Source of the DNA: Methanomassiliicoccaceae archaeon
GTDB taxonomy: Archaea > Thermoplasmatota > Thermoplasmata > Methanomassiliicoccales > Methanomassiliicoccaceae
Length of the DNA: 64,000 bases
NCBI GenBank assembly: GCA_040776945.1
Contig: JAXGZN010000001.1
Span: 352,001-416,000 of the forward strand
Reading direction: 5' to 3'
In this document: positions 23,799 to 28,201 of the stretch, piece after piece
Layout of the letters: every line of letters starts with the position of its first letter
How positions within the stretch are numbered: position 1 is the stretch's first letter
Translations under genes and position numbers: made by a program
The notes under the pieces: model-generated
Databases searched by the model: none
What the model saw: the letters and a program-made list of their open reading frames with translations, nothing else
What the model was told of the DNA's origin: nothing

Positions 23799-24815
23799 TC
23801 ATTTGCCTATGCTCAGGCTCTTGTCCGTCTTGCTGATGGACTTCATGCCGTCAGGCTCGAGCTTCATCATGGAGCGGATGCAGTCTATGTTCTCCGGGAC
23901 CACATCGCTCTCCTGGTGGATGGCTTGATAGTAATAGAGCGTGTTCCCGACGACCTTAACGCCGTCCTGCCATACAACGATCTCCATGAAGTCCCCGCGG
24001 TCCCGCATCAGGTCCCGGCCGAGCTCCATTATCTGGGCGGTGCTCTTTATGCCGTCCTTGCCTCTTACGAACTTCACCCTGGGCACATTGTCCCATACGG
24101 ACAGCACGTCCTGGTCCTTGGCCTTCTTCCTGAGGTCGGCCGCAATGCAGTGCAGGTGCATCAGGGTGGTAGGGGCCTTCACTGCCATGGTCGTGATGTT
24201 AAGCCACGGCATTATCGTCTGCGCGTCAGGTCCGTGGTGCGTCGGGAGCTTGAGGGATGGTTCCAGCGAGTTCAGCGCCGAGCCCTTTATGTCCGAAGGG
24301 TCTGCGCCCCTCCTGACGATGGTCGCAGAGACCCTGTCCAGACCGAACACCTTGTCCAGCGGATAGAGGGTCCGCACCAGGCCAGTGGTGTTGCAAGAGA
24401 CCACGCGAACGAACTGCGCCCCCCATGCCTCATTATAATTGGCGAAGGCGTTGAACGATATTCCGGCCAAACCGTGGTCCTCCCCTCCCTGGAAGATGGC
24501 CTTGACCCCGGCCTTCTCATACAGGCCCTTATAGTTCTCGGCCACTCCTCCAGGGGTCGCGTCGACGATAATATCGACCTTGCCCAGCAGGTCCTCGATG
24601 GTGCCCGCGACCTTGATCCCTTCCTTTTCAAAGGCGGCCACCTGCTCGGCGGTGGCGGTGTACATGGGGAAGCCTTCCATGCCTGCCAGCCGGGCCTCGT
24701 ACGACGGCCTGGTCTTAGTTACCCCTATGATCTCCATATCGTCCTGGGCCTTCACCGCGCAAGCCACGCGCTTACCGATGGTCCCATAACCGTTGATGCC
24801 GACTCTGACCTTCAT
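23799..24815 (-). CDS. gap: Type II (archaeal) glyceraldehyde-3-phosphate dehydrogenase
   Basis: NGYGTIGKRVA, QGGE, VVSCNTTGL, HHGPD, HQESDVVPENID. Confidence 0.96.
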   Translation of the reverse strand: MKVRVGINGYGTIGKRVACAVKAQDDMEIIGVTKTRPSYEARLAGMEGFPMYTATAEQVAAFEKEGIKVAGTIEDLLGKVDIIVDATPGGVAENYKGLYEKAGVKAIFQGGEDHGLAGISFNAFANYNEAWGAQFVRVVSCNTTGLVRTLYPLDKVFGLDRVSATIVRRGADPSDIKGSALNSLEPSLKLPTHHGPDAQTIMPWLNITTMAVKAPTTLMHLHCIAADLRKKAKDQDVLSVWDNVPRVKFVRGKDGIKSTAQIMELGRDLMRDRGDFMEIVVWQDGVKVVGNTLYYYQAIHQESDVVPENIDCIRSMMKLEPDGMKSISKTDKSLSIGK

Positions 24816-25025
24816 GTAGACTACTCCATTATCGCTCCTTCCAGGGGGCGAGCGGCTGCCATCCCCGCCTCCACAGGATAGGCGTGTTCACATGCCTATA
24901 TTGTCGGAAGGTTTATTTTTACCGGGTCCTGAACAGTGCCGTTCGATATTGGGCCTCGAGCGCGCATGATTATCGGGAGGGTTCATATGTGGTTAACATG
25001 CGTTATGGGGCCGATCTAGCAAGTG

Positions 25026-25034
25026 CTTATATAC
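25026..25034 (+). promoter_or_regulatory. TATA box of the ilv leader/ilvBNC transcript
   Basis: CTTATATAC centred about 25 nt upstream of ATG 25055, the spacing expected for a leaderless mRNA. Confidence 0.6.
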
Positions 25035-25054
25035 GATTTCCGTAATTCAGGATA

Positions 25055-25126
25055 ATGATGTCAAACGCCACGAAGCGCTCTAACGTTTCTCTGGGCTTGG
25101 GCGTAGTGGTAGTATTGATTAGGTAG
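25055..25126 (+). CDS. Putative ilv operon leader peptide MMSNATKRSNVSLGLGVVVVLIR* (23 aa)
   Basis: Translated by hand; GTA GTG GTA GTA TTG ATT (VVVVLI) just before AGG TAG; directly upstream of, and in frame with, ilvB. Confidence 0.75.
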   Translation: MMSNATKRSNVSLGLGVVVVLIR

Positions 25127-25127
25127 A

Positions 25128-25171
25128 GGCATCCAGTTCATTGGGTGACCTCGCTCATTGCAGGGGATGTT
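25128..25171 (+). promoter_or_regulatory. Hairpin able to sequester the ilvB ribosome-binding site
   Basis: GGCATCC (25128-34) pairs with GGATGTT (25165-71); inner TGGGTG (25142-47) pairs with CGCTCA (25152-57). Confidence 0.5.
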
Positions 25172-25174
25172 TAT

Positions 25175-26845
25175 TTGAGAGGATCAAAGGCCGTTCTCAC
25201 ACTGCTGGAAAAAGAAGGCGTCGATGTCATGTTCGGGTACCCTGGGGGCTCCACCCTAACCCTGTACGATGACATGCTGACGTCTAACATACGCCATGTG
25301 CTGGTCCGCCATGAACAATGCGCGGCGCACATGGCCGACGGGTACGCTAGGGCCACGGGAAAGATCGGAGTGTGCACCTCGACCTCCGGACCTGGCTCCA
25401 CCAACCTGATCACTGGGGTCGCCACCGCCTACGTCGATTCGTCTCCCATGCTGGTGCTCACCGGCCAGGTTACCACCTCGGCTATAGGGAACCAGGCATT
25501 CCAGGAGGCTGACTCGTTCTCCCTGATGATGCCGATCACCAAGCACAACTTCCGCCTCCTGGCCCCATCGGAGATACCGGAGGCGATTAAGCGCGGCGTT
25601 TCCATCGCCAATGCCGGGCGCAAAGGACCGGTGCACATCGACCTGCCGTCGGACGTCCAGAAGGGGGAGGTGCCTGAGGCCGAGATGAGGCGGGAGTTCC
25701 CCGAGCCGCCTCCCCTGGAGGACTTCCATGACCTGCCCGAGGCGATCAAGATCCTCCGGGCCGCGGAGCGGCCGCTGCTCCTGGTGGGCGGAGGGATCAT
25801 ATGGTCCAACGCCAGCCCTGAGGTCGTCCAGCTGGCCGAGATGCTCATGGCACCGGTGACCACCACGATCATGGCCAAGGGCGTTATCCCGGAAGAGCAT
25901 CCGCTGTCGCTAGGCATCATTGGAATGCACGGGAAGGAGGCGGCCCGGAAGGCATTCATGGAGGCCGATGTCATCCTTGCGGTCGGAACCAGGTTCTCGG
26001 ACCGTAGCTCCGGCGCGCAGTCCGAACTTCCCATGTCCACGAAGCTCATACATATTGACATCGATCCCGGCGAAGCGGGGAAGTCCGCCCGCACCCAGGT
26101 CCGCCTTGTAGGCGATGCCAAGAAGGGTCTGCGGCTCCTGATCGACGGTCTGCAGATGAGCAAGGGGGAGACCGCATGGTCCCTCCGCATCAAGGAGATC
26201 CTTAAGAACTGCGCTTGCAACATAAACGTGCCCTCGTCGCCGGTCCTCCCGCAGTTCGCCATCTTCGAGCTGAACCGGACCCTGCCCAAGGACGCCATCG
26301 TCTGCACTGAGGTCGGGCAGAACCAGATGTGGGCTGCCCATTTCTTCAAGGCGCGATATCCGAGGCAGTTCATCACCTCCGGCGGCTTCGGCACGATGGG
26401 CTTCGGGTTCCCCGCCTCGCTAGGGGCGAAGTACGCCTTCCCCAACAAGGTGGTCATCGACATCGCCGGCGATGGCAGCATCCAGATGGTCTCTCACGAG
26501 TTCGCCACGGCGGTCTCCGAGAACCTCCCGGTGGTCGTCTGCGTGTTCAACAACGGCTGGCTGGGCATGGTCCGGCAGTGGCAGAAGCTGTTCGCCGACA
26601 GGCGATACAGCGGGACGGAACTGCGTGAGAATCCGGATTTCGTCAAGCTTGCCCAGGCCTACGGGGCTGACGGCATCCATGTCGAGCGGGCATCCGAACT
26701 TCAGGAAGCGCTCAGGACCGGCATGGACGCCGGGATCCCGTTCCTGATCGATATCCACATGGACCCGGATGAGGACGTCCTTCCGATGATCCCTCCGGGC
26801 GGAAACCCAAACGCGGTCATAAGAGGTAGGTGCATATGGAAGTGA
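25175..26845 (+). CDS. ilvB: Acetolactate synthase large subunit
   Basis: FGYPGG, RHEQ, TSGPG, GPVHIDLP, VGQNQMW, SGGFGTMG, GDGS...NN; TTG start 25175 after AGGGGA (GTG 25145 is an alternative). Confidence 0.96.
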   Translation: MRGSKAVLTLLEKEGVDVMFGYPGGSTLTLYDDMLTSNIRHVLVRHEQCAAHMADGYARATGKIGVCTSTSGPGSTNLITGVATAYVDSSPMLVLTGQVTTSAIGNQAFQEADSFSLMMPITKHNFRLLAPSEIPEAIKRGVSIANAGRKGPVHIDLPSDVQKGEVPEAEMRREFPEPPPLEDFHDLPEAIKILRAAERPLLLVGGGIIWSNASPEVVQLAEMLMAPVTTTIMAKGVIPEEHPLSLGIIGMHGKEAARKAFMEADVILAVGTRFSDRSSGAQSELPMSTKLIHIDIDPGEAGKSARTQVRLVGDAKKGLRLLIDGLQMSKGETAWSLRIKEILKNCACNINVPSSPVLPQFAIFELNRTLPKDAIVCTEVGQNQMWAAHFFKARYPRQFITSGGFGTMGFGFPASLGAKYAFPNKVVIDIAGDGSIQMVSHEFATAVSENLPVVVCVFNNGWLGMVRQWQKLFADRRYSGTELRENPDFVKLAQAYGADGIHVERASELQEALRTGMDAGIPFLIDIHMDPDEDVLPMIPPGGNPNAVIRGRCIWK

Positions 26846-27186
26846 TAAAGATAGTCGGATGTGACTCCCCGGGCCTGTTCCAAAGGATCCTGGTGGAGCT
26901 TGGAAGAAGAAAGATCGAGGTCGAGAAGTCGTTCATGGCCAGGGAGAAGGGGAAGATCAACATAATCGTGGAGGCGGAGACCGGAAGCATGAACGGCAGG
27001 CTGCTCCATGCGATCATGGCCCTACAGGACATCGAGTCCGCGGAGTATATTGCGGAGGACTACTTCTGCTTCTGGGAGACCTCCCCGACCAAGGGATCGG
27101 GATACATCATCGCCTGCGGCCACGACAAGAACGCTGGTGAGATGCGGAGGACGGCCGAACATTGTTTATACAAAGGCACGGATTAG
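26830..27186 (+). CDS. ilvN: ACT-domain acetolactate synthase regulatory subunit (divergent)
   Basis: DSPGLFQRI ACT start; sits between ilvB and ilvC. Confidence 0.65.
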   Translation: MHMEVIKIVGCDSPGLFQRILVELGRRKIEVEKSFMAREKGKINIIVEAETGSMNGRLLHAIMALQDIESAEYIAEDYFCFWETSPTKGSGYIIACGHDKNAGEMRRTAEHCLYKGTD

Positions 27187-27214: not shown

Positions 27215-28201
27215 ATGACCAAGATATATCACGATTCCGACGCGGACCTCGGCATATTGAGGGGAAAGAAGATCGCCGTAATCGGTTATGGCAACCAGGG
27301 CCGCGCTCAGGCGCTCTGCCTTCACGACTCCGGCATGCAGGTGACCGTTGGTGCCCGTAAGGACGGAGAGTCGTGGGGGCAGGCACAGGCCGACGGGCTT
27401 AAGGTCGCGGAGATCCCGGCCGCTGTCAAGGGCGCGGACGTGGTCATGATCCTGTTGCCGGACGAGGTCCAGCCCAGGGTATACAAGGAACATATCGCCC
27501 CTAACCTAAAGGACGGCGCAGCCTTGGAGTTCGCTCATGGTTTCGCCATCACCTTCGAACTTATCACCCCTCCGAAGAACTGCGATGTTATCATGGTCGC
27601 CCCCAAGTCCCCCGGCCGGATGGTGCGCCAGACCTATGTGGAAGGGTTCGGCGTGCCTTCGCTCATCGCCGTGAAGCAGGACGCGAGCGGCAACGCCAAA
27701 AAGATCGCTCTCGCCCTGGCGAAGGGGCTGGGTTCGACCAAGGCGGGCGTGCTTGAGACCGACTTCCGTGAGGAAGCGACCTCCGACCTGTTCGGCGAGC
27801 AGGCCGTGCTGTGCGGCGGCGTGACCGCGCTGATCGAGGCGGGCTTCGACACCTTGATCAAGGCCGGCTATAAGGCAGAGATCGCCTACTTCGAGGTGCT
27901 CCATGAGCTGAAGCTCATCGTCGACCTGATCCAGGCCGGCGGGATGATGCATATGTGGGACTCGGTGTCCAACACCGCTGAGTACGGCGGACTGACAAGA
28001 AGGGACAAGGTCATCAACGCGGAGTCCCGGAAGGCCATGAAGCAGATCCTAGAGGACATCAACTCCGGAAAGTTCGCGGAAGAGTGGACCAAGGAGTGGA
28101 CCGTCGACCTGAAGCACATGAAGGCCCTTGAGAAAGAGGAGTCTGAAAAGCAGATAGAGCAGGTCGGCAGGGAGATCCGCAAGCTCTTCGAGCGCAGCTG
28201 A
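27215..28201 (+). CDS. ilvC: Ketol-acid reductoisomerase
   Basis: IGYGNQG, LLPDE, FAHGF, MVAPKSPG, DLFGEQAVLCGG, SNTAEYG. Confidence 0.97.
   Translation: MTKIYHDSDADLGILRGKKIAVIGYGNQGRAQALCLHDSGMQVTVGARKDGESWGQAQADGLKVAEIPAAVKGADVVMILLPDEVQPRVYKEHIAPNLKDGAALEFAHGFAITFELITPPKNCDVIMVAPKSPGRMVRQTYVEGFGVPSLIAVKQDASGNAKKIALALAKGLGSTKAGVLETDFREEATSDLFGEQAVLCGGVTALIEAGFDTLIKAGYKAEIAYFEVLHELKLIVDLIQAGGMMHMWDSVSNTAEYGGLTRRDKVINAESRKAMKQILEDINSGKFAEEWTKEWTVDLKHMKALEKEESEKQIEQVGREIRKLFERS

Follow-up and report, generated by a model that had tools for sequence, protein, structure and literature searches.

We propose that the acetolactate synthase gene ilvB in the window, by which we mean the whole stretch of 64,000 nucleotides (nt) from a Methanomassiliicoccaceae archaeon (contig JAXGZN010000001.1, positions 352,001 to 416,000), is preceded by a short leader open reading frame (ORF) that is likely to act, at the 5′ end of the ilvB-(small ORF)-ilvC mRNA, as a leader-peptide sensor of valine, isoleucine and leucine. 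The leader ORF, termed type I below, is confirmed as a real element conserved beyond chance and, judged by its coding signature, is probably translated; that the sensing is done by a ribosome reading the leader we hold with good confidence. To call the element an attenuator is to argue from its anatomy and from bacterial analogy. The type I leader has apparently not been described so far. Its features, in the order in which they lie, are as follows.

25027 to 25034, plus strand: TATA box TTATATAC, with a purine-rich stretch resembling a B recognition element immediately 5′; read from the sequence and conserved in alignment A1.
25058 to 25126, plus strand: leader ORF MSNATKRSNVSLGLGVVVVLIR and its stop codon, 22 codons; counted from the in-frame ATG at 25055 it would be one Met longer.
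25060 to 25119, plus strand: hairpin A, formed between mRNA nt 3-18 (UCAA..CCAC, in codons 2-6) and the Val-Leu-Ile codons (GUGG..UUGA).
25103 to 25120, plus strand: regulatory codon run GTA GTG GTA GTA TTG ATT (VVVVLI), composed of synonymous codons that are the rarest or close to the rarest.
25126 to 25152, plus strand: hairpin B, GAGGCAUCCA / UGGGUG(A)CCUC, 10 base pairs (bp) and a single bulge, with pairing that begins at the last base of the stop codon.
25156 to 25160, plus strand: single-stranded linker motif CAUUG, conserved in alignments A1, A2 and A5 and present as CAUYG or GAUUG in relatives.
25162 to 25177, plus strand: Shine-Dalgarno-like AGGGGAU and the ilvB start codon TTG 25175, placed by the sequence, the TIGR00118 match and the relatives.

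An earlier, sequence-only reading of this DNA had pointed to a 23-codon ORF with five Val, three Leu and one Ile among its last 13 residues, behind a TATA box at 25026-25034. That composition stands, as does the presence of the box, whose coordinates are corrected to 25027-25034; the length does not. The longer frame, 25055 to 25126 (+), translates as MMSNATKRSNVSLGLGVVVVLIR before its stop, and 25058 is the likely leader start because the alignment of relatives and the TATA spacing favour the second ATG, leaving 22 codons. The frame ends exactly as had been read, with TAG at 25124-25126 and 48 nt separating it from the ilvB TTG at 25175, and the codons GTA, TTG and ATT are indeed uncommon, at 8.8% of Val, 9.3% of Leu and 8.1% of Ile codons in the window's genome (counted on ORFs of at least 250 residues from a crude ORF set). 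Counted from the first T of the TATA box, the aligned leader start follows at 29-32 nt in all 28 type I loci with a pattern-detected box, three of which (the window included) are counted at the second in-frame start, 3-6 nt from the first. The spacing holds in 19/20 further loci and in 10/10 loci of types II and III, described below. The start codon itself is ATG in family f1 and mostly GTG in the other families. A distance of 29-32 nt is that expected between an archaeal TATA box and the start of transcription. Transcription is thus predicted to start at or adjacent to 25058, and the ilvB mRNA is probably leaderless, since the leader start codon stands at this distance from the box.

Support for the sensor model comes from the conservation of the frame and of its tail. 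IlvB was sought in 41 genomes of the order Methanomassiliicoccales and is present in every one; in the 30 loci retrieved, with IlvB 100-65% identical, a short ORF with a tail rich in Val, Ile and Leu ends 47-60 nt before the ilvB start (30/30). The conserved ORF that the sequence-only reading had proposed to look for across the order is therefore there, both in these 30 loci and, by covariance model, in 58 of 151 genomes. The tails read ..LGVVVVLIR in the genus of the window and ..VLGSVVLTS, ..AVVIIIS, ..VGIIIR or ..KVIVVL in other genera and families, each directly before the stop codon. Among 49 type I leaders, which are 63, 66, 69, 72, 75 or 81 nt long, the leader frame is open in all 49; stops occur in frame +1 in 44 and in frame +2 in 36. 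The nine codons before the stop include on average 6.1 for Val, Leu or Ile in the leader frame, compared with 0.8 and 1.9 when the frame is shifted. The run stands at the same place in every leader examined, and its codons vary by family (GUA GUG GUA GUA UUG AUU; GUG GUA AUC AUU AUU; GGG AUU AUC AUU; GUG AUU GUU GUU UUG), the amino-acid class remaining constant despite the differing nucleotides. A conserved and probably translated ORF would also be expected if a small hydrophobic leader peptide acted in trans, yet we give that explanation scarcely any credence: the 49 leaders comprise 42 distinct peptides of 20-26 residues, poorly conserved beyond Val, Leu and Ile, the hydrophobic stretch of 5-9 residues is below membrane-spanning length, and the ORF is always linked to an acetohydroxyacid synthase (AHAS) gene, once per genome.

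The element can be followed across the order with covariance models. One of these, R1, was built from f1 alone and recovers families outside its training set over the full length, with matches that open precisely at the GTG predicted as the start; a broader model, R2, was run on 151 genomes sampled from the order and matches 58, always with one match per genome. By family, R2 matches 22/23 genomes in f1, 1/1 in f2, 22/47 in f3, 4/4 in f4, 0/1 in f5, 8/10 in f6 and 0/64 in f7. The f3 genus that R2 leaves unmatched (0/17) carries a divergent version of the leader, read in loci L028 and L030, and an automated reading of further f3 loci found a TATA box, a GTG 29-31 nt from it and an ORF with a V/I/L tail in 19/20. 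The f7 loci L061-L063 and L075-L091 keep the gap-ilvB neighbourhood, often with two tandem AHAS genes, and have a plain promoter and a short 5′ region. In genome G012 (L052:1501-1616) the leader and both hairpins are intact, and ilvB is cut to an ORF of 279 residues (1669-2508) with ilvC next; this ORF joins the N-terminal part of ilvB, its C-terminal end and the small downstream ORF, indicating an internal deletion. In a sample of the phylum ilvB was present in only 27 of 201 genomes, and the three of these outside the order had no leader. Among 80 named ilvB loci a leader was seen only in Thermoplasmata records, under a strict threshold of six Val, Leu or Ile in seven residues; at this threshold none was seen in about 60 loci from Bathyarchaeia, Methanosarcinales, Methanomicrobia, Archaeoglobi and bacteria, many of which may have an upstream gene, with doubtful V/L/I ORFs in L127 and L135 as the exceptions. 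Crude scans of the window's genome, made on longest-ORF calls and prone to misses, gave nothing convincing by way of other leader peptides beyond ilvB.

Two further leader types share this layout. A type II leader stands before a second AHAS paralogue, 51-53% identical to IlvB, in six genomes of f2, f4 and f6 (loci L064-L069, in order from G032, G036, G040, G035, G028 and G024), and the layout was found in 6/6 loci read. Type II peptides such as MNAALIFVNSSLLVSVQVLVV or MEQTALTAGSGCVSVSEQLLVVLVVR are unrelated in sequence to type I; their TATA box is 31-32 nt upstream, and a G+C-rich hairpin after the stop codon is followed by GAUUG and a Shine-Dalgarno motif. A type III leader, M..AGQGG..PILVVLGVLVDLRILRP, occurs in four named Thermoplasmata records (L096, L097, L099 and L100; IlvB 57% identical) with the layout of types I and II, a long hairpin enclosing the stop codon. 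Common to the three types is a pairing between the regulatory codons and the nucleotides next to the start. Where types I and II occur together, the last 12 residues of the type I leader hold five Ile, two Val and no Leu in five of the six genomes and three Ile, one Val and one Leu in the other; the same stretch of the type II leader holds 3-6 Val and 3-5 Leu, with a single Ile in one genome and none in the other five. Where a genome has only one AHAS, as that of the window does, the tail mixes Val, Leu and Ile. A division into Ile/Val and Leu/Val leaders between isoenzymes is what a codon-level sensor predicts, and it therefore fits sensing. Locus L094 has tandem AHAS genes, each behind its own V/L/I-rich leader, VSINTCQRAIVLLRVDVVLLVL (471-553) and MSGITCETGVLILRVSVVMTVI (2426-2555).

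The leader is also structured as RNA. Each of 30 leaders folded individually forms two hairpins, A and B. Hairpin A spans nearly the entire leader ORF, and its partners co-change between families (ACCAC/GUGGU; AACAACAAC/GUUGUUGUU; CCCAUUCUG/CAGAGUGGG; AUCACGUGC/GCAC(A)GUGAU); its core helix is 92.5% paired over 51 sequences, and four of its five pairs have changed on both sides. Hairpin B, 97.2% paired over 51 sequences with an invariant basal GAGG/CCUC, has a folding energy of -14.7 kcal/mol in the window (z = -2.65, 3/200 shuffles being equally stable); in relatives it has about 10 bp and in some families begins 0-4 nt after the stop codon, and L028 and L030 have a helix of different sequence at this position. 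RNAalifold returns hairpin B alone from a plain MAFFT alignment of all families and both hairpins from the f1 alignment. For 51 distinct sequences and 27 pairs, 85.2% of cells form a standard pair, compared with 38-50% in a control with the partners slid by 1-3 columns; 16/27 pairs have changed on both sides, a count reached by 6 of 500 shuffles, and neither the 149 cells changed on both sides (shuffles 58 ± 7) nor the covariation score of 0.318 (shuffles 0.161 ± 0.009) is reached by any of the 500, figures to be read with the fact that the sequences are mutually related and their alignment is model-fitted, which favours structure. Hairpins A and B covary by these measures.

Such a fold raises the question of whether the RNA, and not its translation, does the sensing, as it would in a structured 5′ leader read by a protein or ligand (an Lrp-type or ACT-domain regulator, or a new riboswitch) with the ORF merely tolerated. 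The two covarying hairpins would suit this explanation, as would about 40 nt, from GGGCGUAGUGG to GAGGCAUCCAG, that are near-invariant between f1 genera (IlvB about 75% identical) including third codon positions, the conserved single-stranded CAUUG, which the sensor model leaves without explanation, and the fact that no alternative-pairing switch was detected. We nevertheless regard it as unlikely. The frame, the TATA-defined start and the V/L/I tail persist while the nucleotides differ completely across types I-III, the Ile/Val and Leu/Val split belongs to the codons and not to the fold, and none of the 4227 models of Rfam, which include amino-acid leaders and ilvB motifs, matches at E ≤ 10 in the region of the window or at E ≤ 1 in nine type I-III loci. 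Two candidate roles in this part of the RNA were tried and dropped: as an extended Shine-Dalgarno partner CAUUG gives no fit to ACGUUAAC, which comes after the 16S rRNA 3′ end, and ARAGORN found nothing tRNA-like in GGGCGUAGUGGUAG.

The invariance of GAGG/CCUC in 51 sequences, within a conserved inverted repeat, is likewise what a DNA operator would show if a dimeric regulator bound the hairpin B repeat as a roadblock. At one pair of the helix, however, 24 sequences have U-G, 16 have U-A and 11 have C-G, and the bulge is one-sided, features which make sense only as RNA of the leader strand; in addition the promoter is about 70 nt upstream of the site, and L028 and L030 preserve the helix, not the sequence. 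An operator is in our judgement highly improbable.

RNA contigs from metatranscriptomes are in no conflict with the predicted message. The locus is contained in 17 RNA runs, and contigs of four runs from four studies were aligned. Contigs on the ilvB side start at 25072, 25073, 25102 (preceded by adapter letters) and 25107, which is 14-49 nt inside the leader ORF, and traverse hairpin B into ilvB; 24910-25032 is without contig cover in 3/4 runs. These contigs, which cannot map starts, ends or amounts, are compatible with co-transcription of the leader and ilvB and with a start near 25058. On the other side of the intergenic region, two runs have contigs of the gap gene that stop at 24877 and 24894, some 60-80 nt 5′ of the gap ATG. 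That the leader and ilvB share one RNA contig, and that hairpin A begins 2 nt from the predicted 5′ end, would also suit a constitutive stabiliser or processing element, in which A caps the 5′ end and B blocks exonucleases without any sensing; such an element is very unlikely, as it leaves the V/L/I run, the rare codons, the fixed distance between run and hairpin B and the link to AHAS alone unexplained.

We therefore return to the ribosome as the sensor and propose the following sequence of events for the transcribing polymerase. Transcription would begin at or beside the leader start codon, as the TATA spacing indicates, and from the geometry a ribosome would load on the 5′-terminal codon before the 3′ strand of hairpin A is transcribed. 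Once folded, hairpin A pairs nt 3-62, so the sensing ribosome would be the one trailing the polymerase. When charged Val, Ile or Leu tRNA is scarce, this ribosome would pause on the rare codons of the run. A ribosome covers about 12-15 nt ahead of its P site. With a Val codon of the run in the A site it ends at least about 9 nt short of hairpin B, and on a Leu or Ile codon it reaches the base of B; paused on the Val codons it would thus stop short of B, which would fold once made. With the stop codon in the A site, the ribosome covers the entire 5′ arm of hairpin B, a relation that is the same in types II and III, and when tRNA is plentiful B would consequently stay unfolded while the spacer and the ilvB start are transcribed. 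The state of hairpin B, and of A, would then set ilvBNC expression: B folded with a parked ribosome would mean on, and B open would mean off. This assignment of hairpin B as the gate, folded on and open off, we offer with rather more doubt than belief. An archaeal factor may provide the output through premature termination or through cleavage, or the output may lie in the initiation of ilvB or in the lifetime of the mRNA. Taken as a whole, the claim that this is the first archaeal amino-acid-sensing leader peptide, invented at least three times in Thermoplasmata and free of a terminator, with a pioneer ribosome gating a stop-codon hairpin, is a tentative one to which we assign somewhat less than an even chance.

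Several results weigh against the model, most of them on its output side, and join the reservation on the covariation alignment given above. The stability of hairpin A in the window does not exceed that of shuffles (z = -1.0). In f7, ilvB does without a leader, which was found in 0/64 genomes by R2 and in 0/20 loci read at a threshold of five Val, Leu or Ile among the last nine residues, and the element is therefore dispensable. No terminator-like site was found in 24700-25400: the 3′ flank of hairpin B reads GCUCAUUG, with no T run after B, and T-rich stretches near the ilvB start are not conserved among loci. No contig breaks after hairpin B in the four runs, whose contigs are uninformative on starts, ends, levels or short terminated leaders. 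A switch in pairing fared no better. Duplexes between a freed hairpin A 5′ strand and downstream RNA are like those of shuffles (z -2.5 to +2.0) and have no fixed target; an alternative hairpin of the B 3′ arm with the linker was rejected, being 68% paired, without covariation and matched by 364/500 shuffles. Finally, equilibrium modelling of 30 loci gave the ilvB Shine-Dalgarno motif and start the same accessibility with a ribosome on the run as with one at the stop (0.38 vs 0.37, p = 0.76; 0.40 vs 0.38, p = 0.70), and a second equilibrium model agrees; the 3′ arm of hairpin B pairs with the ilvB Shine-Dalgarno motif only in some loci (L017-L019, L021). The sequence-only reading, which had inferred a translation-coupled attenuator on a leaderless archaeal mRNA, is accordingly supported by the conserved ORF, the conserved TATA-to-start spacing and the Ile/Val and Leu/Val split; neither a terminator nor a supported alternative pairing was found.

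As to how genes end in the window's genome, judged on a crude ORF-based gene set, 3′ ends are not enriched in hairpins (-12.84 vs -12.96 kcal/mol, p = 0.30), and runs of at least four T are weakly enriched, being present in 19% of 402 convergent 3′ flanks and in 5% of controls. At some convergent gene ends a highly stable hairpin directly followed by 5-8 T resembles a bacterial terminator, though only a few such cases occur.

The genes around the element are the following.

23799 to 24815, minus strand: gap, type II glyceraldehyde-3-phosphate dehydrogenase, the divergent neighbour, outside the element and marking the far end of the intergenic region.
25175 to 26845, plus strand: ilvB, encoding the large subunit of acetolactate synthase (TIGR00118 at 673.8 bits, cut-off 538.35).
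26830 to 27186, plus strand: small ORF of 118 residues from its GTG, in the ilvN position and overlapping the end of ilvB.
27215 to 28201, plus strand: ilvC, ketol-acid reductoisomerase (NF004017, 496.6 bits, over residues 70-395 of the longest ORF).

The intergenic region between the divergent gap gene (23799-24815, minus strand) and ilvB has a G+C content of 0.475, compared with about 0.6 in its flanks. The TIGR00118 match starts at TTG 25175, which is residue 11 of the ORF opened by GTG 25145, and this ilvB is the sole match above the family cut-off in the genome. The operon had been read as ilvBNC, and the family matches bear out ilvB and ilvC; the label ilvN is unconfirmed because the middle ORF matches no family in NCBIfam or Pfam. 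In sequence this ORF resembles a short ACT-type regulatory subunit, though without a family match. The 3′ end of the 16S rRNA of the window's genome is GGAUCACCUCCU, and the relatives have GGUGAU, GGAGG or similar Shine-Dalgarno motifs, with TTG, GTG or ATG at the codon aligned with the ilvB start. The leader ORF and ilvB share one frame in the window, with TAG 25124 as the sole intervening stop; read-through of this TAG to give a fusion of leader and IlvB was considered and rejected because close relatives, with spacers of 48, 50, 49 nt and other lengths, do not preserve the frame.

Ribosome-mediated attenuation is a textbook bacterial mechanism that combines coupled transcription and translation with hairpin-dependent terminators; archaea couple the two processes as well, but terminate differently. 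In Escherichia coli, the ilvBL and ilvGL leaders place runs of Val, Leu and Ile codons before acetolactate synthase operons, the ilvBN leader having Val/Leu and the ilvGMEDA leader Ile/Val/Leu. The archaeal leaders are like these in having a short ORF with a V/L/I run directly before an AHAS operon, and in that the leaders of isoenzymes differ in their amino acids, which suggests that isoenzyme-specific control of acetolactate synthase evolved in parallel in both domains. They are unlike them in that the E. coli leader ORFs are led by a Shine-Dalgarno motif and followed by mutually exclusive hairpins and a hairpin and U-tract terminator, and in that the host here is an archaeon, whose RNA polymerase and mode of termination are different. 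Put in terms of the classical trpL/ilvBL attenuator, the short leader ORF with a run of end-product codons before the operon is present, and exclusive pairings selected by the ribosome and a G+C-rich hairpin with a U-tract terminator were not found. Nor did the equilibrium models of the 30 loci show a stalled ribosome unmasking the ilvB binding site, as in a translational attenuator of the ermC or mycobacterial poly-Cys kind.

Parallels in the predicted leaderless geometry are bacterial. According to passages in PMC10272879, Corynebacterium ilvBNC has a leaderless upstream ORF rich in branched-chain amino acids before ilvB, together with an ilvB-II motif and a proposed three-hairpin terminator model, and both the ilvB-OMG motif and the ilvB motif are presented there as bacterial. 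The archaeal leader shares with the Corynebacterium case, as those passages present it, an ORF rich in branched-chain amino acids before ilvB, the Corynebacterium one being translated without a ribosome-binding site; it differs in that the latter is bacterial with a proposed three-hairpin terminator, and no sequence or Rfam relation links that system, as described there, to the archaeal element. In mycobacteria, the part of 10.1101/834739 that concerns poly-Cys small ORFs describes leaderless reading frames in which ribosome pausing on the cognate run controls downstream genes without a terminator. Our leader resembles these in its predicted position as a leaderless sensory first cistron and differs from the system so described in two respects: there a structure that would sequester the ribosome-binding site is prevented by the stalled ribosome, whereas here no general change at the ilvB ribosome-binding site was modelled, and the archaeal run has its pairing partner at the 5′ end of the leader ORF itself. 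For Deinococcus deserti, sections of PMC4007540 predict leaderless leader peptides with a 5′-AUG or GUG before genes for amino-acid biosynthesis or tRNA synthetases; as in our predicted case a 5′-terminal start codon opens a short ORF enriched in the cognate amino acid, though the Deinococcus examples, as far as those sections go, are bacterial predictions of classical transcription attenuation. In archaea, some 5′ small ORFs seen by ribosome profiling are remarked on as reminiscent of bacterial leader peptides in passages of PMC10117724 and PMC11456600, and a paper on valine production by Methanothermobacter cites attenuation for bacteria only in the passages concerned (PMC13158618). The full-text literature searched, which excluded supplements and subscription journals, describes no archaeal leader-peptide attenuator, in keeping with the remark of the sequence-only reading that translation-coupled attenuation has little archaeal precedent.

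The leaders add unannotated genes to many genomes, and the element provides a handle on the archaeal ribosome as a metabolite sensor, on terminator-free wiring and on the regulation of leaderless mRNAs. If the model is true, the leader would be direct evidence that archaea use coupled transcription and translation for regulation, and the state of the hairpin would be read by archaeal machinery through factor-dependent termination, cleavage of the nascent RNA or control of initiation at the next cistron. Set beside the known systems, the leader resembles a leader-peptide attenuator in its sensor half, while its output half falls outside the classical bacterial class; by analogy with those systems, it suggests that archaea, like bacteria, can sense amino acids via the translating ribosome.

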